64,000 bases of DNA from a virus (IMGVR_UViG_3300037067_015039:1-64000), one strand, 5' to 3'; shown: positions 2,355 through 29,266, counted from the stretch's first letter. Notes: generated by a model not told the origin, from the sequence alone. A program made the numbers and translations.

Positions 2355-2407
2355 GACGGTTCTCCCTTTTAATATCCATTTTTATTCTATCACTACCCTG
2401 TCAAGTC

Positions 2408-2785
2408 CTAAATATATCCAAACATGTCATAATTCTCGCCCGGAATTACATGAGGCTCCCGTTGGTCTGGAACCAGGAATATGGTACTGGGATGCGCACA
2501 TGCGATGGGGTCCAGAAAAATCGTAGTCTCGGCACCTGCATTTATAAGTCCCAGATAGTCGCAAGCCTTTACAAACGTATTTAAAATCCCGACCCCATCC
2601 TGGCCCACCATTAAGGGGGAACGCTCGATCACGCCTTCGCTAAAAATAGTTCCCGGATATTCAATATACTCCGGGTTAAGGAAAGTAGTAGTTTCAGCTC
2701 CTGCATTTATAAGAGATGGGTCCGATTGGACCTGTGTAGCCGGTTCTTTTAAAATGATATCTGAAAACTCATAAGGAGAACTCAT
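2408..2785 (-). CDS. Hypothetical virion protein with an internal duplication
   Basis: LINAGAETT.FL.P...P.TIF occurs twice. Confidence 0.6.
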   Translation of the reverse strand: MSSPYEFSDIILKEPATQVQSDPSLINAGAETTTFLNPEYIEYPGTIFSEGVIERSPLMVGQDGVGILNTFVKACDYLGLINAGAETTIFLDPIACAHPSTIFLVPDQREPHVIPGENYDMFGYI

Positions 2786-3583
2786 TTACGCAACCCTTAT
2801 TGCTTGTAAGAAACCGCCATACACTGACACGGGTACTCCGCTAACCACAAACGACCCGAGAGTGCTGCCATCAACTGGGATCTTAATAAGTGAACCGGGA
2901 GAGAATATATCAGGAACACAAATATGCTGATAACATCTTCCGCAAAAAGCAAATGATACCGTAGCCGTAGTGCTAAAAACTTCTTTGGGATGGAAAATAA
3001 TTCCGCCCGATTGTTTGTATTTTACTCCGCCACCACCACCAATATTTGTATAGTCTATGCATCGAACAGTTTGTGTTGGGGTAGCATTGTCAATCATACA
3101 CAGTGCGACTATCGTTCTAGGCCCGGCAGACCCACCTGCGTTTGTAAGCCACCCCGCATTATAGACATATTTGGTATGGGCGTTCTGCGCCTCCGGACTG
3201 AGATCCAGGATCCCACTACAGAGGTGCTCTACCACCTGCGTAGGCCAAAGGGCTTCAACGTGAAAATGATACTGACCAGTGAATAAGCTCACCGTGCTGG
3301 TTGTACCAGCCACGGCACTTATTTCCATTCGCCTAGACAACAAGGCGGTGCCATCTTGATCAGTGGTCGCCATCTCTAATGTATCAGCATCTACCCTGGT
3401 AAAAACATCCGTGTGGAAGCGTCCAACTGCATCTACGGGTGAGGTATAGGAACCGCCACCATTATCCGTCCACCCCGAAGCCACAAGTTCAATCGCAATA
3501 TTGTCTAGAATGGTCTGGACGTCGGTGACGCCAGCAAATTTAAGGAATCGATAAGTAGAAGAAAGAAATGCAGGAGCTGTCAT
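2786..3583 (-). CDS. Tail-associated structural protein (paralog of 3585..4373)
   Basis: Beta-rich; N-terminus MTAPAFL...ELV..GWTD.GG similar to the neighbour. Confidence 0.6.
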   Translation of the reverse strand: MTAPAFLSSTYRFLKFAGVTDVQTILDNIAIELVASGWTDNGGGSYTSPVDAVGRFHTDVFTRVDADTLEMATTDQDGTALLSRRMEISAVAGTTSTVSLFTGQYHFHVEALWPTQVVEHLCSGILDLSPEAQNAHTKYVYNAGWLTNAGGSAGPRTIVALCMIDNATPTQTVRCIDYTNIGGGGGVKYKQSGGIIFHPKEVFSTTATVSFAFCGRCYQHICVPDIFSPGSLIKIPVDGSTLGSFVVSGVPVSVYGGFLQAIRVA

Positions 3584-3584
3584 C

Positions 3585-4373
3585 TTATGCCACCCTTATA
3601 GCTAAACGCCGATAACTTGATGTGATCAATCTTAAAATATAGAAATCTCCCGTTACTCCCGTATCGATTGGGACCGTCATCACCGACCCAAATGCCGAGG
3701 GATAGCATATGACGCACTGGGGAAGACGGCCTATAAGCACGTCGCCGGTTTCAAAATCAGCCGGAGCGAAAACAAACGCTCCGGAAGGAGTTATAAAATT
3801 TGAGGTTCCAGAATAAATACCACGAGGGACGATGGGATACCCACTCCCGGCATACGCAGTCCCAGTTAACGTTAGATACCACCAATAATGAAATGCATCC
3901 GAAGTCAAGTTCCCTGCGTTATTACGAGGACCTTGGGTGCAAACCCATGACGGACGCACCATTCCTGGCGTGTCCGGCCACACATTGAGCCTAGCCACCA
4001 AAAATACTTCAGCGGTTGCTCTCTCGGTCTCTACGCAAAAATAATCCGGACCTGAGAAAATATAGAAAGCGCACCCGCCCGCATCAATGTCTTGACGTGT
4101 GTCTGTTGCGTTATTAACCAATAGGCCGTTACTGTCATACACTATATACGATAGTCTGGTTGCGGAAATTCTCGCTAATGTAACGGTTACAAAGCTTCCA
4201 TCCAATGCATTTGGCGGCGATTTAAACGGACCCGTGCCTGCGCCTCCTGTATCCGTCCAGTCTCCATTTGTGACGAGTTCTGTATTTAGAGCCGTTATTA
4301 TGTCGGCCACATCTGCCGTTGCTGCAAAAAGAGTGGCGCGGAACCCATTATTGAGAAAGTCTGGAACTGCCAT
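3585..4373 (-). CDS. Tail-associated structural protein (paralog of 2786..3583)
   Basis: MAVPDFL...ELVTNGDWTDTGG; both genes end xIRVA. Confidence 0.6.
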   Translation of the reverse strand: MAVPDFLNNGFRATLFAATADVADIITALNTELVTNGDWTDTGGAGTGPFKSPPNALDGSFVTVTLARISATRLSYIVYDSNGLLVNNATDTRQDIDAGGCAFYIFSGPDYFCVETERATAEVFLVARLNVWPDTPGMVRPSWVCTQGPRNNAGNLTSDAFHYWWYLTLTGTAYAGSGYPIVPRGIYSGTSNFITPSGAFVFAPADFETGDVLIGRLPQCVICYPSAFGSVMTVPIDTGVTGDFYILRLITSSYRRLAIRVA

Positions 4374-4374
4374 A

Positions 4375-6081
4375 TCAAACTCCGTAAATATTAGTCAGAA
4401 ATCCTGTGATTACATATTTGCTTTCGGAAGAATTATAAACCAATTGAAGCATGTCGGTTGCGGCTATCGTAGAAGTCAAAACAGGATCCGGGACATTGGA
4501 TGGCTTAACAATCTGATTTCCAAATGCTAAAGTCCGGCCGCCAGTGCCATCCTGTTTGATTTCATATCTGAGGATTTGGCCGTCATAGGCGCCGGATGGA
4601 TTGCCTAAAGTTCGGTTTCCACCCAATGTAATCCTGAAATGGTTCCCCAACGAAGCATCCGTAACGATCGTGGCGGCATCGGCCAAGGTTACGACCTTCG
4701 GCCCCAATTGACCATCCATGGCACGGGCGCCACTTATCGGCAGATATTGAGTGTGGTCGTCAGCCGGAGCCACTAACCCAGTCAATCCTGAATGTGCCGA
4801 TACCCCGCCTTCATCCTTCCACGCTGAGCCATCCCAGTATTGAGCTTTGTGGAGGGTCACGTCGTAGACTTTTAGGCCCTCAGCAGGGGAAGCAATCGCT
4901 GCAATTTGAGCCGTGGTCATTCTTGGAGTGAGGAAACCTTTAACCGTTGATGTTAAGTCTAAAATGGCCGATGCATCGGGAGTCAAAATCCCAACGCCAA
5001 CCGAGCCAGACACAAATAATCCCGTGCTAAGAATACGTAAGATTTCAGCAACACTAGTACCGCTTGTGCCGATGCAGAAAGATATAGGAGTTCCGGCGGT
5101 CGCCCCGGCAGTGGCGGCCTTATTTATGGCAAAGAAATATGTCATCAATGTTGATTGCTCTATGTATAACTGATAAGCGCCGGCATCAACTACATTCTTG
5201 TTCGTGGACACCACCAAGTCGGTAGTTTTCTGGACGCCAGGGGATGAAAATAGAGGGAGCACGACAAATGATACTTTCGCATCGCCGGCATCCTGGCCAA
5301 TCGCCATTGTACATAGAGGATAACCATTATATGGATTAGTTGATACAAAGTTTGAAAGAGTTATTTTATCGTAAGGAAATGCTCCAGGTGTGGACTGGCT
5401 ATTTATTTCTCCTTTCACGTCCATGGGGTAGGCGGGATTGTTTATGCCCACTCCCACTTTATCGGTGAGGGTATTGGGATAAAGATAGCCGTTTACGGCA
5501 TCCCTTGCCCAGAAGATTCCCTGATAGAGTCCATCGAAATACGTCTTTAGCGTTGCCTTGACGTTTGCCCATGACAGTTTCGCCAGGATATTACCTGTTG
5601 CACTATCCATTAACCCCAGGTGGTCGGCGTCGACAGGGGTCGCCTTATCATCCGCAGCGGCGATAATATCCCCGATACTCTGCGCTGTTTCATCGCCAGA
5701 ATTGGTTCCTGAAGTATTCCCGATGACTATCTTTTCCGCATTGGTTACATAATTATCGTCTGCTCCTTTTGCAGGCTCAAACCCCGTATGACCACTGGAA
5801 GCGTAATCAAGATTGCTTAAAGTTGAATGGGCGTGGGTGTGCGTAGTCGGGGAAAACCCTGTATGGCCAGAAGCTGCATAAGCTAAATGCGTTAATGCAG
5901 CATGGTCAGTTGTGCCGCCCCCGCCACCAGACGTTTGAATAGTAGATACATCTTTAGCAGTTGCACCTATTCTATTCTGGATCTGGCGCAGGATAAAATT
6001 GAGCTTTTCATGTTTAGCGCGTTCATCCAGCCCGGGATCAACCTGATATATTTTCAGTTCACTTGATTCGGTCATAATCAA
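4375..6081 (-). CDS. Tail fibre protein
   Basis: Repeats HxxLxxLxYAxSGHTGF; VGVGINNP and [23 protein letters not shown] fibre motifs; C-terminal [11 protein letters not shown]...[11 protein letters not shown] domain. Confidence 0.8.
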
Positions 6082-9000
6082 AAGCTCTGGGGTGGAACAA
6101 GTTTAATCCTGGCGTATCCATCTTCCCCATTCATGTTCTTTATTTCGACTTCGCTCTTTTCCCAATAAAGCTGGAAAGCAAAGGATGAAGAAAATATAAG
6201 TCTGAAAAGTCTTCCTCGGATAGCGCTTTCTAAATCTACTCTGATTTTCGAATGTCCAGTTGATCGGCGATCGGCCGTAATGGTTTTTGTCGAAGCCAAA
6301 ACATCATCAGCGTAGAGTTCCATCGTCACGTCGGAATCAGGATTTTTCATTGCAATCCAGAATCTTCGAATGATTTTGGTACGATCATAATTCATCAATT
6401 GTTCATAGGTATCCGAGAATGTGACGTCGGCCGGATCCTTATCTGTCACGTACCGAACGCTATAAACCCTAACGCCCTGGGGTAGGCAGCAGAATGGATC
6501 AAGATAATCTTCGTCGACGGTGATACGCCCGAGCTTTCCGAAAGAATCCTTCTCGAGGGAATGAGTGATTAATTGCCGAGTAGCGCATTGGACATCAAAG
6601 CTTTCCTTAATTGCTCCATCGAGCCAGAAATCAAACCCGATCGGTACATTATTTGTGTCGATATCCAGGATCACTTCTTTCCAAAGTTTTGGATAAGGCC
6701 ATTGCTCCTCAGACCAAGGCATTTGAAAACTGTTTATCAATGCCGGCTCTTCCAGCACATTGAATTTATGGGCATAAACCTTAACCTCATTTTCCCCAGT
6801 AGGAACAATTTTCAACCTGACCAGAGTTCCCCTGATATCGGGAGGAAGGCCATAAAAGAATCTCTGCCGGCCAGTACTGGTGGTGTTTGCCCTGATCGTA
6901 GTTGCTAAAGCCTGGTCGACCTGGACTTGGATTTCTTCGAGCGGGGCGCCGAATGTATCCAATTCAATCATCAATTCTCGGAAATATTTTTGAGTTGGGA
7001 TGCCGCAATCATCCCATTGGGTTACAAAAGTTCGATGCCGGATAGGCTCAACCAAGATCCGGTGTATAATTTTATAAAACCTGGTTAACCCTGTAGCTGT
7101 AGCTAAAGTAGTCGCCAGCATCCGAATACGGGTTCTCCGGCAAAACTTTCCTTCAGATTCTCCTACAAGGATTGGAAGAATCTTTTGCTCTCTCCCGGAA
7201 GTGATAATACTCCCCATTGGATCCGGAGAGGCGCCGTCAAAAGAAAGTTGAACATCAATTGCGTACCCTTGGGTATCCACGTCAAAGACATAATCTATGA
7301 AATGCTTTTCTTGGTCCGGCATGCCAAGATCATAATCCTTGGTATCTACAATCCAAGATATTCCCTGAACTCCATCTGCGCAGTAATCGACAAACCCTTC
7401 CTCAAGTTGTAACGCCCAATTCCCACCATAAATAAATGAAGTAGGGCCATCAAGTATTGATGCCCACATAGCCAAATTGCACCCGACTAAGATATTAGTA
7501 TTAGGCTCATTAAATAGACACTGAGCTCCGTAACCGTAAAAATGCCAGCGTTCATAAAGCATATCCCAAACGTATGTCCCATCATTTTTGACAGTGGCAT
7601 CCGATGACATTGGAAAGCTGAAGTAAAGTTTTGAGTCCCAAAAAGCCATCGCTGATAGGTATTCCCGGTCTTTGATCATTCCAGGCATACTATTCATGGT
7701 TTCATTTTTAAAGACCTGATTTATAGGTTCACTAATTTTCCGGCCGGATGGATATTCGTAGATTCCATCATAAGCTTGCATATAAAGCCCTCGGGTGCCA
7801 CGCGCCAAGCCATGGGGGTTAATTAACCCTTGGTTGACGGCCGTAGACCCGGCCGTATAATCACTGAGGGTTGATCCAGAAATTCTATAAACTCGCGTCA
7901 AAGTAAAAACAAAGAGTTCTCCGTCATGCTCCATAACTCTTTGAATTTGTTCTGATCCGGCGCCAACATAAATGTAATTTTCAGCCGGGAAGAGTTCTAT
8001 CCTAACCCTCTTCGAAAATCTTAGACGATTAGGTGGTTCTGGAATTACATTCCCATCTGAATCGGTATATGAACCTCCCCAGGTCCAAAGTCGATTATCG
8101 GCAACCTCAAGTCCTAAGACATTATTGACTGGCAACTGGTTATCCAGTTCTGCCGGGTCTCCTAATTCTGAATCAGGGACATTATCTAAAAATGCTGGTG
8201 GCGACCCTCCTGCAACATAATCTATTTCAGCAACCAACTGATATTGAGTGACTGTTCCCCCCATGCGATATACTCTGATTTTGTCAGGGTTTGCCAAAGG
8301 CGGGGTAGTGAATGGGCAAGGGGGAAAATATAAATTTACCTGTTGATCAGTTAAAGGACCCAGATCATTAAGAAAAACATCGGATAGATCGCTTTCAGTA
8401 TCTGTTTTGCTGTCATAATAAGTATAGGCCCATTGGAGATCGCTTCCTACCAACTTGCCAGTGGGGGAATAAATTACGCTGTCAAAACTGACGCTATTTG
8501 TCTCACCCCCGGTTGCCGGGTCAATATTGTCAATCTCTAGACCAATCCCGCTAATGGTGTTCCACCCGAGAGTTGACTGAGTTTCACCGCTATTATTCAG
8601 GAATACAAAGTCCGTTTTAGCTATTTGAATTTCAGTCCAAGCTCCTACAACAAATGTGTCGAAATCTGAAAAAGTACCTGTGGCAAAATACTGATAGATT
8701 GCCCCTGTGTCTCCGGGGATGTCACTCACCACTAAGATGATTTTAATAGCCGCGGCGTTGGCAAGCGCTTCTGCATCGTTGAATTTCACCCAAACTTTTA
8801 TGTATTCCCCTGGGTCCGAAGATCCCATGTCAATAACAATAGTATTCCCATAGCTATTGGTAAAAGCTTTTGTCGCTCTACCCATCACGCCATCTCCGGT
8901 GATATCTATTTGGATGGCATTTCCGGTTTTGCCAGCGGCGTCAGCAGAGACTGTACCTTTATTACATAAAGGTACGCCTAAAGGAGAGAGTTCAATCCCA

Positions 9001-10361
9001 CCGGATGGCTCATCATAAACATCAGTCAGAGCCATCGGGGTAGTATTCGCTAACCTTAAATTGTCAGGGTCCGTCCCAATATAAAGATTCCAAGAAACCG
9101 ATCCAACGGGTGCCGTGTCGGATGCATCAAAAGTGTTGATCACATAAGCCAAACCAATTTTATGAACATATGGGTGAGGAATAGCGGGAGACCCAATTGA
9201 TCGTCCGATAAATCCTATAAAAAGATTAGATACCGTAGCGGTTCCAGCAGGGATGGTAATGCTGTAGGCTGTTGTCCCCCCTGTTCCGCCAAAACTTTCG
9301 GTAATTCTTTTATTGGTCGTAACAACCATGGAATCAACATATGTCCCATATTTACCATTAATCCCAGTGACATATTCATCGTCATCTAACGTGATAGTTG
9401 TAAGAGATCCTCCTGGGCCGCCATGTGAGGGTCCATCTGTGAGCGTTCCATCTGGTGATTGGTAAACTAACTGGATCCGATCAATATAAGTGCCATGATT
9501 GATTTTTATTTGATAAACTCTTGCCCCCGCGGGGAAATTTGCCAATCCATCAGTAAAAGCAAACCCGCCACCACCACCATATTGGGCTGAGTAGCCCATT
9601 GTAATGTCAGGCTTTTTCCAATAAATTCTTGCTGCCTTTTCCGGGGGGATCCAAACATAAGGGTTTGATATTCCGCTCGGGCAACTTTCAACCGCGCTAC
9701 CATCAATAAATGTATGCTTGGCGTAATACCACCGCGGCCCCAAAACTCCAGGACTGTTTACCCACCATATGGTGGGGCAGTAGGGAGCTGCGACGGCGGC
9801 GGCATCTCCACCTGTCCACTCAGTGTAATCTTCACAAGCTTCAATTACTGTATCTTCAGTCGGAACAATTACTATCCCCTCTAAAGGTTTTTCCGGTCGC
9901 GGAATTCCAATCCTTCTCAAAGATTCAGCGTCACCAGGATGCTTCAGAAAAACAGTCCCATCTGCCATTATCATATAGGGTTTTGTTTCGATTCCGCTCA
10001 AAGTGTAATTGGCGAAAAAAGCTCTGGGATCTGATCCTGAAGATAAGTTGGATCCTCCTGAGACAGGAACAAAATCAGATGGAGTGGGATAAACCTGTGC
10101 AATATACAATTGCCTGCCTGCAATTACGTATCGCCAAATATTTCCGTCATAATCCTTCATTAAATATGACGAATATGGGACTGAGGGCAGTCCTGCGTTT
10201 AAACGAGCAAAGCCTTTTCTTACAGCGAGAGAATTCTCTTGATCAGTGAAGACATTTACAAGAGCGGTATAGGCATCGATCGGGATTTCGTCCGGTGCGG
10301 ATTTGAGAATAATGCCCTTATTGGCAAAAGTTATAGGGATACTCTTAATTTCTTCAGCCAT
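6078..10361 (-). CDS. Large tail protein (nozzle/tubular-B-like) with an inserted jacalin-like lectin domain
   Basis: 1427 aa; N-terminal PDEIP...LVNV...LAVRKG and propeller-like NRLRFS / FWDSKLYFS segments; follows the adaptor genes; jacalin-like insert at about aa 260-408. Confidence 0.7.
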
Positions 10362-10363
10362 AA

Positions 10364-11715: not shown

Positions 11716-11723
11716 TCACAGTA

Positions 11724-12080
11724 TTAAGTGGTCCTTGTTACTTCCGGCAACACAATCAGTCGACCGGATGCTATCGTATAAATATTCCCCTGGGAATCCC
11801 TGATCTGCGCATCCCAAACTAATATCGTTTTCACATTGGCTACCGTTAAAGTGTCTGCGCTTGCGATTGTCACCTGAGCAATTCCTTGAGTTGGGTTGGT
11901 AATAACAATCCCACCATTTAATGTTGACTTCTGAAAGACGGCAGCCGCATCTAGATCTGAATATTGATTCTTTGCCGTAAACCAGATAGAACTTCCGGTG
12001 AGATTATAAATTGCTCCTCCCGACGTAACCGCCAGGTTTATTTTTACGGTATCGCTGCGGTATATCGTTAGGTCTGACAT
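11724..12080 (-). CDS. BppU-N-like Ig-fold virion protein
   Basis: LTIYRSDT..INL...YNLTG...FTAK...WDAQI...TIASG.L.V.PEVT pattern. Confidence 0.7.
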   Translation of the reverse strand: MSDLTIYRSDTVKINLAVTSGGAIYNLTGSSIWFTAKNQYSDLDAAAVFQKSTLNGGIVITNPTQGIAQVTIASADTLTVANVKTILVWDAQIRDSQGNIYTIASGRLIVLPEVTRTT

Positions 12081-19534: not shown

Positions 19535-19543
19535 GATTCCCCC

Positions 19544-19846: not shown

Positions 19847-19856
19847 CTTGATCTCC

Positions 19857-20099
19857 TTAATATCCTTGTCTGGTTTTCATGTCACTGGTAGAAGGAAGAT
19901 CATCGGTATCGAGATCAAATGGAGTAATAAACTGTCCACCGGCCTTCACTCCACAATCAGGAACCCTAAAAGCCATTGCCGGATCATCAACGGATCTCCC
20001 ATCCGGTATCTTGTGACCTGTTGGCGCCTGGTTGAATGTTGGGCATGGGCGCTGTGAATCTTCTGGAATTTCTTTGCGAGTCATAAATCCTCCACACAT
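19857..20099 (-). CDS. Hypothetical protein
   Basis: Likely start at 20084 (MTRKE, GGAGG RBS); preceded by an N9 promoter-like site. Confidence 0.55.
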   Translation of the reverse strand: MCGGFMTRKEIPEDSQRPCPTFNQAPTGHKIPDGRSVDDPAMAFRVPDCGVKAGGQFITPFDLDTDDLPSTSDMKTRQGY

Positions 20100-20768
20100 C
20101 TATCTTACGTTATCGCTGTCAAGCCTGCCGTTAAGACTCAACTTTAAAAAATCTGTTTCCCCGATCGGATGAGCCATACCCATTTGCTTCACGATCAGAC
20201 TGGTGTCACACCAGACCTGGAATCCTTTTTTGATAGCCCTCATGCAAAAGTGAAGATCGGCGCCTCGAGTCGAATTCTCTGGATAGAAGAAATAGGGTGC
20301 TCCAATAGCTTCAATTACTTCACGCTTTATCAGTATGACGCCCGTTCCCACACCACCATCGACCTGGAACAATTCATTATGGGGATAATCAAGAATCGGA
20401 TGAGGTTCTCCATCACCATTGACGTTGAATACTAAGGGATCGAAGTTCCCGGACGATCGAAAGAACAGCGGCGCAATTATGTCCTTATCTCTTGCCAGAA
20501 GCTTCCCAATGATGTCAGGAGGGCAAAGAAGCATATCGTCGTCGGCAAAGAGCAAATGAGTCGCCCCACCCTTCAGGGCAGCCTCACAGGAGATATTTCG
20601 GACCTTCGGCGTCGATACTTTAGGCCCACCAATCAGCCAGCGGACAGAGTATTCTCCACGAGCCTCAGCCCGGCCGGATTCTTGTGAAACAAGGAGAAAA
20701 TTCATTAATGGCTCTGGATCCATTGCATGGTAACAAGGAACTGAAGCCAGTATCTTTACAGTTGACAA
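20100..20768 (-). CDS. GT-A fold glycosyltransferase (GT2-like)
   Basis: THLLFADDDM (DxD motif), GTGVILIKREV and GADLHFC...GFQVWCDT motifs. Confidence 0.85.
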   Translation of the reverse strand: MSTVKILASVPCYHAMDPEPLMNFLLVSQESGRAEARGEYSVRWLIGGPKVSTPKVRNISCEAALKGGATHLLFADDDMLLCPPDIIGKLLARDKDIIAPLFFRSSGNFDPLVFNVNGDGEPHPILDYPHNELFQVDGGVGTGVILIKREVIEAIGAPYFFYPENSTRGADLHFCMRAIKKGFQVWCDTSLIVKQMGMAHPIGETDFLKLSLNGRLDSDNVR

Positions 20769-20861
20769 GTTACGTCTCCGATATTATTATAGAGGCAATT
20801 GAACATCTTAAAATCGTAACATAAGATATTGCATATAAGTCCATGTAAGCTGTTGATTCTA

Positions 20862-22073
20862 TTACACATAACCAAAGACAGAATCCACATCATGTGCTTG
20901 CCAATAATTTGCGCCGTGCTGTGTGAATGGATAACGGCTGTATGCCCATTGTAAATTCTGCATATATATGGAATCATCTGCCAGCATGGCGGCCGCCAAG
21001 TCCTCTTGATATTGATTGAAAAATTCACGGGCTACTGCCGGGTCATAATACGGGCTCTTGGGATTCCATTTGAGAACATCTGCCAAGGCGCCATTCACTA
21101 ATAAATGGCTTGGGATAGCAGGTGGAGGAGTATCCTCTGGTTCCGTCAAATTAGGGGGCGTCCGGTATGCAATGTAAGGGAATCCTTGTTCCATTGAAGG
21201 AGAAGGATAAAGTTCGTATTGAAATCTTCCGATTTCATCTGGAACAAAATCCGCCAGCATATAGACAAACCCGGTTGTTTGCCTCCAGGTGTCATAGGTG
21301 TTGAGGACTTCTTGAGGCATATTCAATCTCAGGCGCCAACCCTGTTTGTTGTTGACGACGCTCCAGACCATCCTCAGATTTTGCTCAAGAGTGACATACG
21401 CTTTCATAATCTGGTAAGCGGATGTCAGAAAATTGGCATGGCCCCAGGCTAAATCCAATTTCAGATAAAGAGAATTGACGAGCGGATCCAGAGAAGAGGG
21501 AGCGGTATAAACTCCGATAATTCCATAAAAACTTGTGGTAGTTCCCACCCGGAACTGCCGGCGCACCAAAGAACTCTTGGTGATAGTCTCGCCTGCGTCA
21601 TGCGTAGCGGTAGGCTTCGCTTTAAAACTGTTTGTTCCCACGGATATGACCAGCATAAATTCCGGGGTGCCAGTCTGGTCAAAGGTCAACCAGTCTCCGG
21701 CTTCAATCCCAACCATGCTTGTGGGATAGACATCCTGATATTCATTTGTGATTGTGATTGCCTGACTCAGTGTCGTATTAACGAGATCGTTAGTCGGCCA
21801 GACGGTTAAAATTCCTTCAACCCCATCGGACCCTTGAACGACATTCACTGATCCTGTGGTATAGACAGCCGGGACAATAATCTGACCACGCACAAGCAGA
21901 CCTGCCCACATGCGCTTATCAAGAACTTCGCGCAAACGAGTATTGATTCGTCTTTTGGCTAATTGAGGAGGGCAATCAGGATTATATGTGAGGACGTGAT
22001 TAACCATGTCCTCAAAGTTCTCCTGTACCGCCCCTGCACCAGCATAGGGCTGGATCGGACCAACAACGGACAT
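20862..22073 (-). CDS. Head-completion/adaptor-type virion protein with an internal beta domain
   Basis: N-terminal helices, YTTGSVNV beta region, C-terminal ELYPSP...PEDTP...LLVNGALAD adaptor motif. Confidence 0.6.
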   Translation of the reverse strand: MSVVGPIQPYAGAGAVQENFEDMVNHVLTYNPDCPPQLAKRRINTRLREVLDKRMWAGLLVRGQIIVPAVYTTGSVNVVQGSDGVEGILTVWPTNDLVNTTLSQAITITNEYQDVYPTSMVGIEAGDWLTFDQTGTPEFMLVISVGTNSFKAKPTATHDAGETITKSSLVRRQFRVGTTTSFYGIIGVYTAPSSLDPLVNSLYLKLDLAWGHANFLTSAYQIMKAYVTLEQNLRMVWSVVNNKQGWRLRLNMPQEVLNTYDTWRQTTGFVYMLADFVPDEIGRFQYELYPSPSMEQGFPYIAYRTPPNLTEPEDTPPPAIPSHLLVNGALADVLKWNPKSPYYDPAVAREFFNQYQEDLAAAMLADDSIYMQNLQWAYSRYPFTQHGANYWQAHDVDSVFGYV

Positions 22074-22092
22074 GGTGAACCCCCGGCGAGAT

Positions 22093-22128
22093 AGGGTCCT
22101 CGTAATTTCCGAGGACCCTTATTCTTTA
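22093..22128. terminator. Hairpin after the capsid-decoration genes
   Basis: AGGGTCCTCG/CGAGGACCCT 10-bp stem; T-rich tail only on the + strand. Confidence 0.55.
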
Positions 22129-22380
22129 AGCTAAACCGATCGCCAAGAGTTTCACATTGGCAGCAGTGCCTTGAGCCGTTATAGCGAAAGTCACTATTCC
22201 GCCGCTATAAGTTGCCCCGATGATGCATGTTGCGTCTCCACCAGTAGCAAATACAGCTTCAACTTTGCCCAAGCCAGTTGCCCACGTGTCACCATCGACA
22301 ATAGCATCGATCTGGGCCAAAACATGCTGGCGATTCCCCATATTAAGGAGAGTCTTAGAGCTCGGAGTTAATGCAGTCAT
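22126..22380 (-). CDS. Small virion protein
   Basis: GGAGG RBS; beta-rich; follows the capsid decoration gene. Confidence 0.6.
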   Translation of the reverse strand: MTALTPSSKTLLNMGNRQHVLAQIDAIVDGDTWATGLGKVEAVFATGGDATCIIGATYSGGIVTFAITAQGTAANVKLLAIGLA

Positions 22381-22395
22381 GCTTTACCTCCTCTT

Positions 22396-22914
22396 TTACC
22401 AGACCAAGTTCTGGAGTAGGACCGAATTGGTTCCCGCCGTTGTATTACGGGCCGTCAATGCAACACCATAGTTTGCATCGATGAAAACGCCGGCCGCTTG
22501 TCGACCGAAAGTGTTATCCGTACCATAGCAACATCCGTCACCGGCCGCAGTCGAAGCCTCGGTAAGAGCAGTGACGACGCCACCAACCTGTATCCAGCTA
22601 TAATACTGATCCGTGATAACACAACCGGCTACGCCGGCTACCAGGTTTACGCCAGCAGCGATCGCTGAACTGATGTCGCTGGTAGCAATAAAAGTGCCTG
22701 ATGCCGGTGCCAGAGATTTCCAATAAAGGACTCCTCCAGCGACCGCGGCAACATTATCGGTCCCGTTGTCAAATTGGACATACCGATAAACATTGCCATT
22801 GTGACGATACAGAACGCCAAGAGGTGATTTGGCGGCTACATGGTTTGCATAACCTGGACCTGCCGCAGGTATCTCGACAGTTTCCAGGGTTCCAAAAGTG
22901 AAAAGACCGTCCAT
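22396..22914 (-). CDS. Capsid decoration/cement protein
   Basis: Directly after the major capsid gene; GNVYRYV...AGV....YSWIQVGG motif. Confidence 0.7.
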   Translation of the reverse strand: MDGLFTFGTLETVEIPAAGPGYANHVAAKSPLGVLYRHNGNVYRYVQFDNGTDNVAAVAGGVLYWKSLAPASGTFIATSDISSAIAAGVNLVAGVAGCVITDQYYSWIQVGGVVTALTEASTAAGDGCCYGTDNTFGRQAAGVFIDANYGVALTARNTTAGTNSVLLQNLVW

Positions 22915-22938
22915 GGAATTACTCCTTTCGAGACCCTA

Positions 22939-23913
22939 TTACAGGGTAGTTACTCCGGTGAGCATGAAGAACAACCTTGGCGCCGGAATCAAAAGATTGC
23001 CGGAGAACAGGTATTGGCCAGCGACGTCATCCGTATTCTGCGCTTCCTTAAAGCCTGTGAATCCGAATTGATACTTCGGCAGGGTGGAAATCCAGAACTG
23101 GATGTATTTGGTATTCAGGCCGAAAATATATCCGGCAGGGGCATATTGATCGACGGTGATCGATGACCCGTTCCATCTCAATGATTGGAATCCGATTTTG
23201 GCAACATCGGTGTTCTCTTCGAGAAACCTTTGCTGTGGCTGGATCTTGTTCCAGATCATGTCCCAAATCAACTGACTGGTGACGATGAGATCGATGTGTT
23301 CATTACCGAACCATGCGGCGCCATAAGCTGCTTGGAGTCCGAGCATTGTGAATGGATTGAGGGTATTGACGTATCCGTTGATGCCTTGGTTGTTGGTTCC
23401 GTTGGCTACCCCAAGGTCTGAACGGGTGATCCCGCCATAAGATGCATAGGTATTGCCATTGTCCAAAGCTTGCTGGAAACCGTCTAAATTGATGGTCGCC
23501 GAATTAACTCCGGTTCCATCCAGGAAAATGTCCGTGCCAAGCAACTTGGCCATTTTGCCGGAAGCGTTTACCATCTTGCTTTCGACATAATTCATTGCGG
23601 CGTCCGGTCCACGGGCCAATACGTTGTCAGTCCCGAACAATGTCACGTTGACATAGTAAAACTTCGGGTTGACCTCGAGGGCCGTGTCGGTTTGCACATA
23701 GGTAATATTGAAAGTGCCACCGCGTTGGAATGCTCCGCCGTTCAATTCAGCGTACGCAATTGGGTGCCGAATAGTCGTACCACCTTCAAAGCGTTCTGCA
23801 TTCCTCGTCCTGAGCCGGGTAAAGACAGGAGATGATTTATACACGTTATCCACGAGCCGTGGAACGATGTGTTTGTTCACCTTACCTGTGATGTCATCCC
23901 AAGTAAGAGCCAT
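22939..23913 (-). CDS. Major capsid protein (HK97 fold)
   Basis: Likely start MALTWDD after GGAG; LVDNVYKSSP, EGG..I..PI, IFLDGTG and YGGITRS motifs; downstream of the scaffold gene. Confidence 0.9.
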   Translation of the reverse strand: MALTWDDITGKVNKHIVPRLVDNVYKSSPVFTRLRTRNAERFEGGTTIRHPIAYAELNGGAFQRGGTFNITYVQTDTALEVNPKFYYVNVTLFGTDNVLARGPDAAMNYVESKMVNASGKMAKLLGTDIFLDGTGVNSATINLDGFQQALDNGNTYASYGGITRSDLGVANGTNNQGINGYVNTLNPFTMLGLQAAYGAAWFGNEHIDLIVTSQLIWDMIWNKIQPQQRFLEENTDVAKIGFQSLRWNGSSITVDQYAPAGYIFGLNTKYIQFWISTLPKYQFGFTGFKEAQNTDDVAGQYLFSGNLLIPAPRLFFMLTGVTTL

Positions 23914-24136
23914 AATAATTAACTCCATCGATAAAAGGTTACAAGTTTCCGCTTATGCGGATCTTCCGGCTAACGCTTGCTAGTCGGCTAATCTACACTC
24001 GCCTCTGTCTTGCTGCCTTCCATCCATGGCTCCCCGGGATGCTCCCCGGTTCCACTTCCGGCTCGGGCGCCGCCATTGGGGCTCGTGCCTTTAGGGGGCC
24101 AGACCGCCCGGCCCCCTACCATTTCAGGGCTGCTTA

Positions 24137-24973
24137 TTAGCCCTTTCCTTCTGCCCGGAGTTCCGCCCCGATTAAATTCGCAAGTCTTGGATCACCAAGA
24201 GGAATGTCATCAGGGATTCCGGTATCCTTCTTTGCGATTCTTGATTGCAGAGGTCCGAGTGACGGTTCCCCCCCGCTACCTTGATCCAAAGGAAGGTTTG
24301 CAGCTTTTATACGATCGTTGTACTTCTTCTCGTAATCTGCCTCGAGTGTTGCCTTGAGCTTCTCAATCGAGAAATCTTTAGTTAGAAACTCGTAGGCTGC
24401 CTCTATGTCCCCGCCTCGCTTTTGCGCTTCCGCAATCAGTTGGTTACGGTCTAAAGGCTTTCCGTAATCCGCCTGGCATTTCTGCTGCAAGTCGATGACT
24501 TGAAAAATGGCCGCGCCGAGATTGTCTCCTCGCTTGGTCACTTCTTCTTCAAACTTTGCGGCTGTAATGAGTTCACCCTTTTCAATTTTTTGAGTGAAAC
24601 CCTGGACCGTTTGTTCAAGGTTCGCTGTTCTTTCTCTAGCCTGAGATAATTCTGCCCGGGCTGCATTGAGAGCTTTTGTTATAGCAGCGTCCTCATCTCC
24701 CGATAGTCCATCATCAATCGAACTCGCCTTAGCTGCTTCAAGAGCCGCAATCGTTTCTTTCAGCGTCTTGGATTCGGCTAAAGCATCTTTGTACTGTTTA
24801 TCCGCGCTCGAGTGCCAATCCTTCCACTCTTTTTCCTTAGCGGTAAGTTCGTTCATCTTGCGCGAATAATCCGCCTGACGAAGTTGCCCTTCCTCAAGCA
24901 TTTTCTTCGTACCTTCTCTTTCAGCTTCAGGAAGTAAATCCACAAGCTTTTGGAGTTCCGGTGTTAACGCCAT
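24137..24973 (-). CDS. Capsid scaffolding protein
   Basis: Acidic coiled coil with an LRQADYSRKMNEL motif; immediately upstream of the capsid gene. Confidence 0.8.
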   Translation of the reverse strand: MALTPELQKLVDLLPEAEREGTKKMLEEGQLRQADYSRKMNELTAKEKEWKDWHSSADKQYKDALAESKTLKETIAALEAAKASSIDDGLSGDEDAAITKALNAARAELSQARERTANLEQTVQGFTQKIEKGELITAAKFEEEVTKRGDNLGAAIFQVIDLQQKCQADYGKPLDRNQLIAEAQKRGGDIEAAYEFLTKDFSIEKLKATLEADYEKKYNDRIKAANLPLDQGSGGEPSLGPLQSRIAKKDTGIPDDIPLGDPRLANLIGAELRAEGKG

Positions 24974-25044
24974 ACATTTGATCCGTTACTATCTACCCTG
25001 ATTCGACATTTCCCGAAGTCCGTCAGGTGTAAACCCGGTTTACA

Positions 25045-25440
25045 TTAGGCTAGTGCCGGCCCTTGGCCTGGTCCTCCACGACCTTGCGGGGGAGGATTGC
25101 CTTGAGCGCCTGCGCCTCCATCGCCCCCACCCACTTCAGGAGTTTGGGGCGCCGATCTGACGGCTGACAATCCAGAATCCAATATCGCTGTAGCTCGAGC
25201 GGCGAAGGGAGCCATTAACGGCTCAGTCTTAGCCATCTCCTCTAAAACCTTTTTTATTGCTTCAACCTGAGTCGTTACCGCTCCATGAGGGTCAGGGGCG
25301 CCCGGGGCTGGCATTCCACCCGGTCTTTTAGCTGCAATAGCTCCAAGCCCACCCCCAGGTTCAGACGGCACAGGTTGCCCTTGCTGGCTGCCTATTGAGG
25401 GATCCGGCAAAGGAGGCATATCCAACCCTGGCGCTGGCAT
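25045..25440 (-). CDS. Pro/Gly-rich hypothetical head-region protein
   Basis: Low-complexity flanks around one helical hairpin. Confidence 0.6.
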   Translation of the reverse strand: MPAPGLDMPPLPDPSIGSQQGQPVPSEPGGGLGAIAAKRPGGMPAPGAPDPHGAVTTQVEAIKKVLEEMAKTEPLMAPFAARATAILDSGLSAVRSAPQTPEVGGGDGGAGAQGNPPPQGRGGPGQGPALA

Positions 25441-25442
25441 AG

Positions 25443-25598
25443 TTATTCAACCTTGCCTTTCTTCCCTGATTCACTCTTTTGGTTTGCAGAATCCGGAGTG
25501 GTGGACAGTGGGACAAACGTAGCCGGAGATTGAATTCCAGCCGGTTGAGTATTGTCTCCATGACCTTCAAAGGATCCTTCTTTTTTTTCTTCTGCCAT
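25443..25598 (-). CDS. Small hypothetical protein (51 aa, below the ORF-track cutoff)
   Basis: GAGGAG RBS; MAEEKKEGSFEGHGDN...GKKGKVE*. Confidence 0.6.
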   Translation of the reverse strand: MAEEKKEGSFEGHGDNTQPAGIQSPATFVPLSTTPDSANQKSESGKKGKVE

Positions 25599-25624
25599 GA
25601 TGTTCTCCTCTCGGTTAATACTTG

Positions 25625-25807
25625 CTACCTGCGGTTCGTACCCCGCATATTCTTTCGGCCTTTGGCTTTCCTATATCCAGAAAGTTCCTTAGCCTGATCT
25701 GCCGCTTCTGATTTAAGCTCCCGCTTGGAACCTTTACGAAGTTTTTTGACAAGGCTTGCGTGTTCATCTACAAGCTCTTTTTTGTCCATGCAGATCTTAG
25801 GACTCAT
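25625..25807 (-). CDS. Small basic protein
   Basis: TAATG-coupled; ends RGTNRR. Confidence 0.65.
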   Translation of the reverse strand: MSPKICMDKKELVDEHASLVKKLRKGSKRELKSEAADQAKELSGYRKAKGRKNMRGTNRR

Positions 25808-25944
25808 TACTTTCTCCCGGAGCCGCGGCCGCCCTTACGGCCTTTACCTCTCTTGGATTTTCTCCACGCGGATTCTTCGATTTTTTCTTTTTCTGCTGAT
25901 TCGCCGGCTTCATGAGCGGCGGCTTTATCACATACCTTTGCCAT
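25807..25944 (-). CDS. Small basic protein (45 aa, not in the ORF track)
   Basis: MAKVCDKAAAHEAGESAEKEKIEESAWRKSKRGKGRKGGRGSGRK*; TAATG overlaps on both sides. Confidence 0.65.
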   Translation of the reverse strand: MAKVCDKAAAHEAGESAEKEKIEESAWRKSKRGKGRKGGRGSGRK

Positions 25945-26168
25945 TATCGTCTCCCCCCTCTAGAAACCTTCCGACTACCTTTACGTTTCTTGCGATCTTT
26001 TGATTGCCCGGAAACGTGTAAGCCAATTGCTACGGCCTGGCTCGGACTCTCAACTACTGGCCCGGTCTTAGATCCAGAATGTAGATTCCCGCGCTTAAAC
26101 TTGCTCATCTCTTCATGCATCCGTTTGCGCTTTTCTTCTTTAGAAGCACTCTTCGGTAATGCTGGCAT
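25944..26168 (-). CDS. DUF6496-like small basic protein
   Basis: MSKFKRGNLHSGSKTGPVVESPSQAVAIGL motif; ends SRGGRR. Confidence 0.7.
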   Translation of the reverse strand: MPALPKSASKEEKRKRMHEEMSKFKRGNLHSGSKTGPVVESPSQAVAIGLHVSGQSKDRKKRKGSRKVSRGGRR

Positions 26169-26170
26169 GA

Positions 26171-26449
26171 TTACCTCCGTGAAGATCTTCGGCCATTCCG
26201 GGCACCGAGCTTCCGGGATTTTCGCGGCATACTTTCTTTCCGCGAAGATAATTCGTTAAGCCCATCTGACTGACTCCGTATGTGGCCGATGGCTTTTTCA
26301 TGTCTTCCAGAATCTGTTCTGAGATCAAGATATTCACGAATTGTTCTGGCATCGCCTTCAACCCGATATTTTTCTTCCTGCACCGGATCTATTTGCGGAA
26401 CTGTGGTATTGAACTTGGGGCCTTTTAACCTTTTCGTTTTCTTCGCCAT
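26171..26449 (-). CDS. Small basic protein
   Basis: GGAG RBS; ends GRRSSRR. Confidence 0.65.
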   Translation of the reverse strand: MAKKTKRLKGPKFNTTVPQIDPVQEEKYRVEGDARTIREYLDLRTDSGRHEKAIGHIRSQSDGLNELSSRKESMPRKSRKLGARNGRRSSRR

Positions 26450-26462
26450 ATTTAATCTCCGG

Positions 26463-26509
26463 GATTGACTGGGACCTGGCGGGTAGATAATGCCAGGTCC
26501 CAGTCAATC
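26463..26509. repeat. Perfect 18-bp inverted repeat
   Basis: GATTGACTGGGACCTGGC-N11-GCCAGGTCCCAGTCAATC. Confidence 0.95.
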
Positions 26510-26561
26510 AACTTCGGGATTGCCGTCAAAACCATCCTACTACACCGCTGTCAAGCCCCCC

Positions 26562-26930
26562 CTACCGGCGGCTTGTTGAACGTCCCTCTTTACGTGGTTT
26601 TCTGGTTTTAGTAATAACCTTCTCGCCCTCATGTAACTTGGCCGGACCAGATTTTTTTATCCGGCCGCCCTTACGATAACCTTCGGAAGACATGGCAGCA
26701 CCCGCGGCTTTATTCTCTTTTCTCAAAAGTTCCATGCCCATCTTACGGGCCTGAAGCGCATTATTAGAAAGCAGCTTTGAATAGTCATCCCCCAACGGCT
26801 GAGGGTTTTTTATTTGTCCAAGAATATTCCTCTCGCTATGATGTTTCTTGAACTGCTCTTCCTTAGTATCTGCGTAGGCAAGCCAGTCTTTTGATTTTCC
26901 TGTTTTAGGAAGGGTTTCATTTTCAGGCAT
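26562..26930 (-). CDS. Small basic protein with an xxKGG...LHEGE motif
   Basis: YRKGGRIKKSGPAKLHEGEKVI; ends RSTSRR. Confidence 0.65.
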   Translation of the reverse strand: MPENETLPKTGKSKDWLAYADTKEEQFKKHHSERNILGQIKNPQPLGDDYSKLLSNNALQARKMGMELLRKENKAAGAAMSSEGYRKGGRIKKSGPAKLHEGEKVITKTRKPRKEGRSTSRR

Positions 26931-26932
26931 AG

Positions 26933-27337
26933 CTATGCTCCAATCGGTCTTCCATTAGGACCAAATAATGTTCCCGGTCTAAAACCTTCCGGAGAAGTTA
27001 CAGGAGTGGGAGATTCAATATGAGCTATTGGACGTTGAACCTCAATTTCTCGATAACACCCAATACACTTAAATGAAAGCCGGCCGTCCTTGGTTTGGGC
27101 TTTTGCTTCATAAACCGATTTCTTATTTCTGCGTTTGCAATCAGGCGCCGGGCAGGTAAAAACAACATAATCCGATCCCTTTGCCTTAACAGTTGATATC
27201 ATTCTTTGCTTTATGAATTTTCTCCTGGATACCAAAGATTGGACTCCGCTGATTTCAGTCCGAACAGTCTTTGTTGGATATCCCCCACCACGGTTTACGA
27301 TCTTTTCTGCATTTGTTTGGAAAACAATCCCGGTCAT
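26933..27337 (-). CDS. Zn-ribbon protein
   Basis: CPAPDC...CIGC; AAGGGA RBS. Confidence 0.6.
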   Translation of the reverse strand: MTGIVFQTNAEKIVNRGGGYPTKTVRTEISGVQSLVSRRKFIKQRMISTVKAKGSDYVVFTCPAPDCKRRNKKSVYEAKAQTKDGRLSFKCIGCYREIEVQRPIAHIESPTPVTSPEGFRPGTLFGPNGRPIGA

Positions 27338-27348
27338 ACTTTTCCCTT

Positions 27349-29241
27349 TTATATAGCGGCTGCGTTGCCTTGAGTGGCATTACTTACTTTTTGCAAAGCT
27401 CCAGGAGTCATACCACCGCCTCCTCCTGTAGCTCCCTGTTTTTGCCTCATAGCTTGAGCCAAAATATTGGCTCCTTCTTCATCAATCCCCTTTCGGACGG
27501 ATTCATACAGTCCTCCAAGGTCAAGAGAATCGAGTAAGTTTTTGAGGTCCATATCGCCCATGCGTCGGAGTTGGATCATGAGAGCCTGTTGTGGCATTCG
27601 AGCGGATTTCAGGAGCGACCCAGGGACCATAAGGAAAGTGAACTTTTTCCAATGTTCTTCTGGCTTATCTCCCTCGGGAACCATAGTTCCGGGGTCATAA
27701 TCGAAGTCTTCCCAGGTGAGGCCATCACTGCCAAGCAATTGCATCCGGCGTTTTAAGGTATAGTACTGGAACGCATTCGGCACCCATTGCTGACCAACCT
27801 GCTTCATAAAGTCTTCAATATAGCGGACCTTTAAACGAACAAGGGTTTGCTGTCCCTCTTTCATGCTCTCAATAGTATCGCTTGCAGGAACAATGCCGCG
27901 GCGAGACATGCTTCCCATATCTAAGAACCCGCTCTGGCTATCCAGTTCCTGTTGGGCATAAAGCATTGTCTGGAAGACAAATCCTGGAAGAACAGGAGAA
28001 GGCGCATAAGTCGGAGCGGCAATAGAACTCGGGCTGTAGAAAATCTTTGCATTCGGCATGTTTGGATCGAGGCTCTTTTTCACCGCGGCTCCGAATGCAT
28101 TATCAGGAGCAAGCAACATTGGGTTGACAGCCTTCTTGACCGCATCCAAAATACCTGCAAGAACATTATTCATCACATCTTGCAATGGCATTTGGTTTCT
28201 AAATTCTGATATGCCTGGCCATTGCCATGGCACACGGTTTAGCCTGAGACAGGCAAAGGGGAACATTCCGTGGTAGAAGGGGTTGGGTCCGTCGAAAAGT
28301 ACAACGGGACCTCCCATAATAATAAGGCGTCCTCGAGGGTACAGTTTCTCGCCAGGACTAACCATATATCCATATTCCCCACTTTGTTGCCCTCCATTGC
28401 CAACCCAAACCTCACGATTGGACGTATTCCGTTGTGAATCCCTGATCCAAAATTCCCTATACAAAGCCATAGGAATAGCCGATTCCCGGATCTGAGTTGA
28501 AGACTGGCCAAAGAGCCGGCGCATCTGCGGAGACATGATCTGCATGCCTCGAGTCCAAAGGTTCTGATTTGGAGTGCTCGTATATTGGGAATATTCTTTG
28601 TCGACAGGGACGCGAAAGCCACGAAGGGGATATTTCTCTTTAAACCAACTTAGTGGTTTCGGACAACGGTAAATGACGCCCATTGCCCTTTGCAGGGTAT
28701 GCGACGGCCGGATCGGGATCAGATCCATAGCGCCAAGGGGAATAAGTTCCATTTCCCCATCGCCATTTCTCAGGTCCGGGTTCCACATCAGCCGGCCGTA
28801 TCCGATCGTCAAAGCGGCATGAATGATAATCATTGCCAGGCTCATATCAATGTCTTCGTTCGTGAACCAGGCACCGATCATCTTATTCAGAACTTTGGCA
28901 TGCTGATCATAAAGTTTATTATTCGATTTGATTTCGAATGACGGCCGGATATCTGTAAGGTAGGAAATCAATTGAACCAGATTGGTCCACAGCCTGTTAG
29001 CGACCGGAGCGGCTTTGTAGCTTGGCCGGCGCTCAACCCATTGTTTGCCCATCAAGTAATTGATTGCGCGATCGATTTGTACGATCTCATCATTACGTTC
29101 AAGATCGTCTTTGGCTTCTTCGAAAACCGCCTCACACCATTTACTGATAATAACATCGTGGGCATTTTCTTGAATCGGCCATGTCTTGCCAGATGGGTCA
29201 AATGAATACCAGCCCGGGAGATCCAAAGCATTATCCTCCAA
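27349..29241 (-). CDS. Portal protein (P22-like)
   Basis: 630 aa; YLMGKQW, NRL, YPRGR, GPNPF and PLQD..N motifs; between the terminase and scaffold genes. Confidence 0.9.
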   Translation of the reverse strand: MEDNALDLPGWYSFDPSGKTWPIQENAHDVIISKWCEAVFEEAKDDLERNDEIVQIDRAINYLMGKQWVERRPSYKAAPVANRLWTNLVQLISYLTDIRPSFEIKSNNKLYDQHAKVLNKMIGAWFTNEDIDMSLAMIIIHAALTIGYGRLMWNPDLRNGDGEMELIPLGAMDLIPIRPSHTLQRAMGVIYRCPKPLSWFKEKYPLRGFRVPVDKEYSQYTSTPNQNLWTRGMQIMSPQMRRLFGQSSTQIRESAIPMALYREFWIRDSQRNTSNREVWVGNGGQQSGEYGYMVSPGEKLYPRGRLIIMGGPVVLFDGPNPFYHGMFPFACLRLNRVPWQWPGISEFRNQMPLQDVMNNVLAGILDAVKKAVNPMLLAPDNAFGAAVKKSLDPNMPNAKIFYSPSSIAAPTYAPSPVLPGFVFQTMLYAQQELDSQSGFLDMGSMSRRGIVPASDTIESMKEGQQTLVRLKVRYIEDFMKQVGQQWVPNAFQYYTLKRRMQLLGSDGLTWEDFDYDPGTMVPEGDKPEEHWKKFTFLMVPGSLLKSARMPQQALMIQLRRMGDMDLKNLLDSLDLGGLYESVRKGIDEEGANILAQAMRQKQGATGGGGGMTPGALQKVSNATQGNAAAI

Positions 29242-29245
29242 CTTC

Positions 29246-29266
29246 AGTGTAACTGATCGCTGTCAA
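29246..29266 (-). promoter_or_regulatory. TTGACA-N9-TAnnnT promoter-like site (also 2384..2404, 20102..20122, 26534..26554)
   Basis: Four sites with the same 9-bp spacing, each at a gene boundary in the late region. Confidence 0.7.

Follow-up and report, generated by a model that had tools for sequence, protein, structure and literature searches.

A late-region promoter-like element with compressed spacing, conserved in a family of uncultured phages

Introduction

Phage late switches have supplied most of the paradigms for the reprogramming of bacterial RNA polymerase (RNAP), namely MotA/AsiA together with gp55 in T4, Lpa/SspA in P1, Q in lambda and gp36/gp79 in phiEco32. Here, a promoter-like element is described from a 64,000-nucleotide stretch of DNA of an uncultured virus (IMGVR_UViG_3300037067_015039:1-64000), in which an unaltered -35 word, TTGACA, is followed at only 9 bp by a hexamer of the sigma-70 type, TAnnnT. 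This stretch, referred to as the window, represents the first 64 kb of a 109,212-bp IMG/VR virus record (G000 when the whole record is meant), and it was compared with five related IMG/VR records taken whole, of which three are complete (G001-G003, ~103-110 kb) and two are fragments (G004 and G005, ~64 kb). Counts for six genomes refer to G000 and these five relatives, while L-numbers designate further IMG/VR loci. The comparison supports a distinct, late-region-specific class of promoter-like sites with a compressed spacing that is conserved in related phages. With moderate confidence, the four sites of the window are read as late promoters of this phage family, used by host RNAP with a small phage activator at the TTGACA box.

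The nearest described design is that of the Lpa-dependent late promoters of phage P1. Like the sites reported here, these possess a -10 of the sigma-70 type (TAnnnT), lack a -35 and carry a box just upstream, in the spacer. In both phages, a handful of copies head late operons and the box contains TGAC, and in P1 host RNAP is combined with a small activator as is proposed here. P1 Lpa acts through the host protein SspA (PMC1891329), and 11 late promoters with a 9-bp Lpa site have been reported (PMC10695390). Those extracted from NC_005856 (LPmat, LPpro, LPlyz, LPdar, LPs, LPsit, LPpac) follow the pattern AAGTGACTT-N4-TAnnnT. The 9-bp P1 box AAGTGACTT has its centre at -22, with 4 bp between it and the -10, whereas TTGACA has its centre near -24.5 and is separated from the -10 by 9 bp; its TGAC core thus lies 4 bp farther from the -10, and in most clades a G-run stands upstream of it. 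A tblastn search of the six genomes with Lpa (gp10) gave no homologue, a gapped match in the polyvalent protein of G001 (E 0.011) being judged spurious. Hence, assignment to the P1 type was rejected on the box word, its distance and the Lpa homologue.

In T4 middle promoters, the MotA box has a TGCTT core, is centred at -30 and lies ~12 bp from the -10. It replaces the -35 next to a -10 read by host sigma-70, while AsiA remodels sigma region 4 (PMC6024815, PMC7403470). The present sites resemble this arrangement in that a -10 is combined with a phage-specific, -35-resembling box in place of the -35, and they differ from it in the spacing of 8-9 bp and in the unaltered -35 word. Membership in the MotA/AsiA type was likewise rejected, on word, spacing and homologues in the scanned open reading frames (ORFs). 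A likeness to extended -10 promoters (TGnTATAAT), which need no -35, is also given, as TGn precedes the hexamer at most sites of G002, G004 and G005 and at one of the four window sites (2404). A second invariant block at a fixed distance of 8-9 bp, however, is foreign to that design, and three of the four window sites are devoid of TGn.

The late promoters of phiEco32 and 7-11 carry either a single element (tAATGTAtA) or the bipartite GTAAtg-16-aCTA, and they are read by the phage sigma factors gp36 and gp47, respectively (PMC8948821, PMC12276001). They share with the present sites the principle of a private late-promoter class of a lytic phage on the host core enzyme, and there a small RNAP-binding co-factor, gp79, switches between classes. 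In contrast, neither their motifs nor a sigma factor were found here, and the single link is a resemblance of one ORF (29271-29564) to gp79. The -24 element of sigma-54 promoters occupies a place similar to that of the upstream block here (-27 to -22), which indicates that the polymerase can accommodate a DNA-reading domain at this position. Its words (TGGCAC-N5-TTGC) are unrelated to those found here, the downstream block here being of the sigma-70 type, and GG-N10-GC is not kept in the sites. To our knowledge, none of the sigma-54, sigma-32, ECF or Caulobacter sigma-73 consensuses fits the words or the spacing. A literature search, with most subscription journals outside its coverage, found no TTGACA-N9 late-promoter class described. 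The sites are placed in a known kind, the activator- or appropriation-dependent phage late promoters, of which they form a compressed-spacing variant.

Four compressed sites in the virion module

TTGACA-N9-TAnnnT occurs four times in the window versus 0.56 times expected, and none of 100 shuffles reached four matches. All four lie at boundaries between genes of the virion module and on the minus strand, which in this module carries every gene. Beyond these, no CTTGACAG-like word of the entire 109-kb genome is followed by TAnnnT at 9 bp. The spacing hence departs from the canonical sigma-70/sigma-A range (16-19 bp) at all four window sites (9 bp) as well as in relatives (8-9 bp), while T-12, A-11 and T-7 of the canonical -10 are present at each window site. 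At 16-18 bp from the box, neither the window sites nor their orthologues show a -10-like hexamer; that position is occupied by the Shine-Dalgarno sequence.

Site A (29246..29266, minus strand; TTGACAGCGATCAGTTACACT, TTGACA-N9-TACACT) begins 4 nt past the TAG with which ORF 29271-29564 ends; the portal gene follows and likely starts at TTG 29226 behind a GGAGG at 29238-29234. Site B (26534..26554, minus strand; TTGACAGCGGTGTAGTAGGAT) reads GGGGGGGC-TTGACA-N9-TAGGAT, lies 7 nt past the stop of ORF 26562-26930 and heads a block of head proteins, i.e. small basic proteins, a scaffold-like protein and the major capsid protein. Site C (20102..20122, minus strand; TTGACAGCGATAACGTAAGAT, TTGACA-N9-TAAGAT) overlaps the last codons and stop of ORF 20100-20768; the block behind it, with GGAGG at 20093-20089 and ATG at 20084, encodes three proteins of ~740 amino acids (aa) and a 1427-aa internal virion protein. 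Site D (2384..2404, minus strand; TTGACAGGGTAGTGATAGAAT, TTGACA-N9-TAGAAT), 3 nt past the stop of ORF 2408-2785, is the one with TGa before the hexamer (extended -10). It heads ORF 1743-2354 and, by synteny with G001, also a block running into a 4191-aa polyvalent protein. At A, B and D, the distance from the TAG stop of the preceding gene to the box is thus 3-7 nt, and B and D lie 84 and 29 nt, respectively, from a start codon. The hexamers of the three sites without TGn (A, B and C) match TATAAT at 3-4 of six positions.

The late block extends from ~29.3 kb down to position 1 and, by G001 synteny, on into the 4191-aa ORF and the lysis region. PHROG matches in the late region comprise portal, large terminase, major head protein and internal virion protein. 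Promoter blocks of the ordinary kind (TTGACA-N16-18-TAnnnT) number three in G000 and lead leftward from ~65 kb, rightward from ~67 kb and into a replication block from 92.5 kb. The virion module contains 25 canonical promoter matches, no more than the 26.9 expected by chance. As a contrast, the minus-strand promoter at 42550..42578 (TTGACA-17-TAAATT), which drives a winged-helix gene (42118-42525), has the ordinary sigma-70-type layout.

The original prediction, derived from the window alone, had reported these four sites with their 9-bp spacing, and they were found in place, strand and gene-boundary position included. It had also proposed a consensus with flanking bases, from which TTGACA is kept in relatives and the flank C..G[CG]G is confined to this genome. 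Two accessory-region promoters for which it had noted a 17-bp spacer do have that spacer; the one at 42578 is complete, while that at 43491 (TTGACA-17-TATATA) has an imperfect -10.

Conservation of sites and spacing in related phages

Portals 63-98% identical to that of the window are encoded at 16 IMG/VR loci, and the element before the portal gene is kept at 66-98% portal identity, in the form of TTGACA, a divergent spacer and TAnnnT. This spacer measures 9 bp, or 8 bp in L012-L015, and over all orthologous sites it measures 9 bp except in the G005/L014/L015 clade, where it is 8 bp. The same four gene boundaries carry the element across the six genomes and further loci, namely ahead of the portal gene (A), a conserved leader (B), a small gene opening the tail/large-protein block (C) and the homologue of ORF 1743-2354 (D). 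Orthologues of site B were found in G001, G003, G004, G005 and L010, and those of site C in all five related genomes.

Genome-wide, TTGACA-N8-9-TAnnnT strongly favours the gene strand in the five relatives (3:1, 6:0, 3:1, 5:0 and 7:0), and reversed-pattern controls gave 0-2 matches. Over the six genomes, the distance between TTGACA and TAnnnT is 9 bp in 23 cases (2.6 expected), 8 bp in eight cases (five of them in G005) and 16-18 bp in 26 cases (7.9 expected). A weight-matrix scan retrieved 3-4 sites per genome at scores of 23-35 and nothing else above 14.7, the maxima in shuffled sequence being 11-20. A site-B orthologue of G001 on which the matrix had not been trained, with the -10 GAAGAT, was found in this way as well. 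Two D sites missed by the matrix turned out to be one-mismatch box variants, TTGACT-N9-TACGGT in G003 and TTGACC-N9-TATTAT in G005. Among ~35 distinct sites, the six box columns and likewise T-12, A-11 and T-7 are 90-100% identical, compared with 30-60% for the spacer columns. TAnnnT is present at all window sites and ~95% of orthologous sites, GAAGAT in G001 being the sole exception; most sites were found by requiring TAnnnT, and orthologous positions located by synteny agree. In most clades, a G-run lies upstream of the box, while the ordinary promoters of the phage have an A/T-rich flank.

Hence, the motif scan of the whole genome and the relatives that had been suggested with the prediction yielded a discrete set of 3-4 high-scoring sites per genome. 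The prediction had further named loss of the spacing in related phages as a result that would speak against it, and as the spacing is held there, it escapes that refutation.

A search of IMG/VR for GGGGCTTGACA-N9-TAnnnT gave more than 120 matches, mostly chance occurrences or ordinary promoters, and revealed no other family with the same design. Nearly all unrelated phages matching the pattern carry a second TAnnAT at 16-17 bp, i.e. an ordinary promoter, and these matches therefore serve as a negative control. In the L016/L017 clade (portals 63-65% identical), two perfect extended -10 copies (TGCTATAAT) stand before the portal gene (L017:2700-2970) with no TTGACA box 8-9 bp upstream of TGCTATAAT, and a TTGACAG is found just downstream of the second copy, adjoining the ribosome site.

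Predicted start points and leaders

At sites A and C, GGAGG begins 6-8 nt past the hexamer, so that leaders of just 11-13 nt are predicted. Site B differs in having a predicted 5' leader at 26450..26527 (minus strand), composed of an invariant block, an 18-bp hairpin (26463-26509) and then the ATG at 26449. The 14-16-nt block, GACGGCAA(AC)TCCCGA, is placed 6 nt past the hexamer in 5/5 genomes carrying the site, and its start coincides with the +1 expected for a sigma-70-type promoter. The hairpin has a minimum free energy of -42.4 kcal/mol (z -6.3), shows compensatory changes between genomes at 10 of its 18 pairs and keeps its loop, AUCUACCC. An RNA-family search with this leader returned sub-threshold, microRNA-like hairpin matches only; the role of this leader may be to stabilise the 5' end, to offer an RNase III site or to bind a protein.

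Between the portal and scaffold-like genes, a region of strong AT skew at 25443-26930 (minus strand) contains a run of five or six short ORFs (45-122 aa), whose products are very basic and in several cases end in ..RR; these may be internal proteins of the head or serve in DNA condensation. At 22093-22119, the 403-aa gene is separated from its upstream neighbour by a hairpin with a perfect 10-bp palindrome, which may function in the site-B operon as a bidirectional terminator or an attenuator.

Search for the reader

Six-frame searches with sigma-factor models (PF04542, PF04545 and PF08281, i.e. Sigma70_r2, r4 and r4_2, as well as TIGR02937) revealed no sigma factor, the sole matches being two weak, paralogous helix-turn-helix (HTH) proteins of the XRE type (G000 64907-65167 and window 50818-51105). 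No match to a T7-type polymerase (PF00940) was obtained, and the double-psi-barrel motifs of multisubunit polymerases (DFDxD, DxDGD) are absent save for one chance match in the portal. Pfam and PHROG scans of ~137 of 141 ORFs retrieved replication, nucleotide-metabolism and anti-defence functions, no sigma family and no transcription-factor family beyond HTH_3/HTH_31. The Pfam scans of these ORFs also gave no MotA, AsiA, gp39 or other remodeller-like family, with the limit that strongly diverged analogues could escape. As no phage polymerase or sigma factor was detected, the phage is taken to rely on the host polymerase, and host polymerase with a small activator or sigma-remodelling protein becomes the likeliest reader. 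The search for a phage sigma factor that had been proposed thus ended with the two weak HTH matches. Among the three readers put forward at the time, a phage sigma is the least favoured, while an activator or a remodeller is plausible; the compressed-promoter idea stands as a distinct, conserved late-region promoter-like class, its phage-sigma option finding no support.

Candidate readers were drawn from a tblastn matrix as genes conserved in all complete relatives, and two weak candidates were obtained. The first (42118-42525, minus strand) encodes 135 aa with a coiled coil and a C-terminal winged helix resembling HARE-HTH (PF05066, E 0.046) and has its own TTGACA-17-TAAATT promoter, described above. 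Its winged helix matches ZBP1 Zbeta (probability 0.99), NFRKB and an 84-aa chain of an S. aureus RNAP complex, and recognition helix and wing are near-invariant among relatives. The second (30403-30981, minus strand), located between the large terminase gene and site A and conserved in every relative, comprises 192 aa with an N-terminal zinc ribbon, a long helix and a C-terminal ribbon-helix-helix with matches to Arc, ORF56, CopG, PutA and AmrZ (probability up to 0.98) and to RHH_1. Counting against its candidacy, the predicted base-contacting strand residues differ between clades and therefore fit an invariant box poorly. Directly at site A, a 97-aa zinc-ribbon protein (29271..29564, minus strand; Zn_ribbon_8, E 7e-6, below cut-off) has a stop abutting the site in all relatives, and a stretch of 27 residues weakly resembles (E 0.33) the RNAP-clamp-binding helix of phiEco32 gp79.

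Two further ORFs were considered and dropped. The 4191-aa ORF (G000 95945-108520, minus strand; L046:945-13520), in the late block downstream of site D, was ruled out as an N4-like virion RNA polymerase, its domains being those of a polyvalent protein: GGDEF-like, N6-methyltransferase, a Strawberry-notch (Sbno) helicase split by an intein, and LPD38. The highly conserved 226-aa ORF with an acidic tail at G000 74543-75223 (minus strand; L044:10543-11223) was set aside as a regulator in favour of a T5-type small terminase, which it resembles (protein-atlas lead, score 0.90). It is situated 40 kb from the large terminase gene, and the ORF adjoining the latter (32925-33281) looks like a membrane protein.

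How the sites may be read

From the element, its strand, its position and its conservation, we infer a start point, late timing and use of host sigma factor with an activator. The hexamer TAnnnT, preceded by TGn in most relatives, would serve as a (extended) -10 of the sigma-70/sigma-A type and set the start ~7 nt downstream. In place of the usual -35 contact, which would be absent, the invariant TTGACA box at about -27 to -22, with a G-run upstream in most clades, would be bound by a small phage-encoded DNA-binding activator, possibly together with a sigma-remodelling partner. Positioned on spacer DNA beside sigma region 3/4, this activator would recruit or stabilise the polymerase, in the manner of Lpa at the -22 box of P1 and of MotA/AsiA at the -30 box of T4. 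The ordinary TTGACA-N17 promoters would act early and lead to synthesis of the activator, upon which the late sites, near-silent before, would fire. The late genes are thus probably turned on by a phage factor acting on host RNAP. The poor hexamers of the window and the absence of TGn at three of four sites suggest that these are near-silent without a factor and make positive control through the box the simplest reading. Likewise, the G-rich flank of the box as opposed to the A/T-rich flank of the ordinary promoters suggests that something other than region 4 of sigma plus alpha reads it.

Several points weigh against an activator of this kind. The box is the exact, invariant host -35 consensus, which an unrelated activator need not require and which fits a repositioned sigma region 4 at least as well. 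Where a clade has a good TGn-TAnnnT, no factor may be needed at the sites, and the late sites may be read by a factor of the host. Finally, when seven conserved families of small candidate proteins were compared as profiles with solved structures, no significant match emerged, be it to sigma, MotA, AsiA, Mor/C or similar proteins.

One alternative, which we consider unlikely, is a phage sigma factor akin to phiEco32 gp36 or T4 gp55 that has diverged too far for Pfam, replaces the host sigma and reads a short-spaced bipartite promoter. Such divergence has precedent, as gp47 of 7-11 is just 15% identical to phiEco32 gp36 (PMC8948821), which itself has sigma-2-like and sigma-4-like domains (PMC12276001), and many ORFs of the present phage are without annotation. 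The six-frame models and the scans of ~137 of 141 ORFs, however, yielded no sigma family. Moreover, with region 4 on the beta-flap a spacing of ~16-17 bp should be needed, as for 7-11 gp47 (GTAAtg-16-aCTA), and TAnnnT with TGn looks like recognition by a primary sigma.

Similarly improbable is a repositioning of the host sigma factor itself, in which a phage protein would detach or move region 4 from the beta-flap and let it bind TTGACA ~8 bp nearer the -10. A single factor would then shut the 17-bp early (and host) promoters and open the 9-bp late ones in one step. The identity of the box with the -35 consensus, invariant in ~35 distinct sites across clades, keeps this explanation alive, and the same word is used by the early promoters of the phage. 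Tolerance of an 8- or 9-bp spacer would also suit a two-domain reader, next to a -10 of the sigma-70 type. In the holoenzyme, however, DNA near -25 adjoins sigma region 3 and the beta' zipper, and we know of no remodeller that puts region 4 at -25. The G-rich flank, unlike that of the early promoters, suggests a different reader, and no AsiA-, gp39- or other remodeller-like family is found in the scanned ORFs.

The sites could also be plain extended -10 promoters used by the host holoenzyme unaided, TTGACA being a repressor operator or a mis-spaced -35 that traps region 4, i.e. an element of negative control. This explanation, which we regard as equally doubtful, draws on the good TGn-TAnnnT of the G002 and G005 sites and on the relatives at 63-65% portal identity with a perfect TGCTATAAT before the portal and no box 8-9 bp upstream. 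Yet three of four window sites are without TGn and have hexamers with 3-4 of six matches, which would be very weak alone, while box and spacing are conserved, and a fixed box distance is as expected for an element co-operating with the polymerase.

Least probable is that the sites are no promoters and represent a processing or translational operator signal in a read-through message or a DNA packaging or replication site: the near-fixed distance to the Shine-Dalgarno sequence at A and C would fit, but two fixed, non-complementary blocks with a free spacer of fixed length form a DNA-protein pattern, the blocks are two sigma-70 consensus words, which together makes an RNA-level signal unlikely, and the distances of B and D to their start codons are those given above.

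Genome context and host

The ends of the G000 record share an identical 31-nt stretch (window 59-89 and G000 109182-109212), and ORF 2-859, the first one, continues beyond the contig start. The record probably results from circular permutation or from a break within a repeated gene segment. In a collection of cultured phages, no close relative was found by DNA, and at the protein level only remote portal matches were obtained. Regarding the host, a lone I-C CRISPR repeat of the phage has no exact match among 185,579 species genomes, and the capsid protein matches only one 6.4-kb contig, which is binned in an alphaproteobacterial metagenome-assembled genome.

The divergent early control region contains two copies of TTGACA(A/T)(T/A)ATGTTGTCT (G000 65382 and 65238, minus strand; L047) beside the 86-aa XRE-type HTH gene at 64907-65167, which probably form an operator overlapping the early promoters. 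A PurZ-like adenylosuccinate synthetase is encoded at 47008-48276 (minus strand; PHROG E 6e-68) and suggests DNA containing 2-aminoadenine; the relative G003 is devoid of PurZ yet keeps the same late promoters. Other genes of the window, all on the minus strand, encode an HD_4 phosphohydrolase (57049-57618), a protein with weak Ser/Thr kinase and DnaJ matches (49344-50402) and, directly upstream of the packaging genes, a 270-aa protein with two weak C2H2 zinc-finger matches (33621-34433), which is not conserved in the relatives.

Implications

A family of ~100-kb uncultured phages, in which no polymerase or sigma factor was found, thus keeps a putative late regulon of four promoters. Their upstream block equals the -35 consensus without any change and occupies a position normally out of reach of sigma region 4. 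The explanation would be either a new small activator that has taken over this word at a new place or a shift of sigma itself. If true, repositioning of region 4 would constitute a new mechanism, a spacer-length switch that reprograms bacterial RNA polymerase. The element may also offer a clean, portable late-only promoter design and a marker for the annotation of late operons in this phage group.

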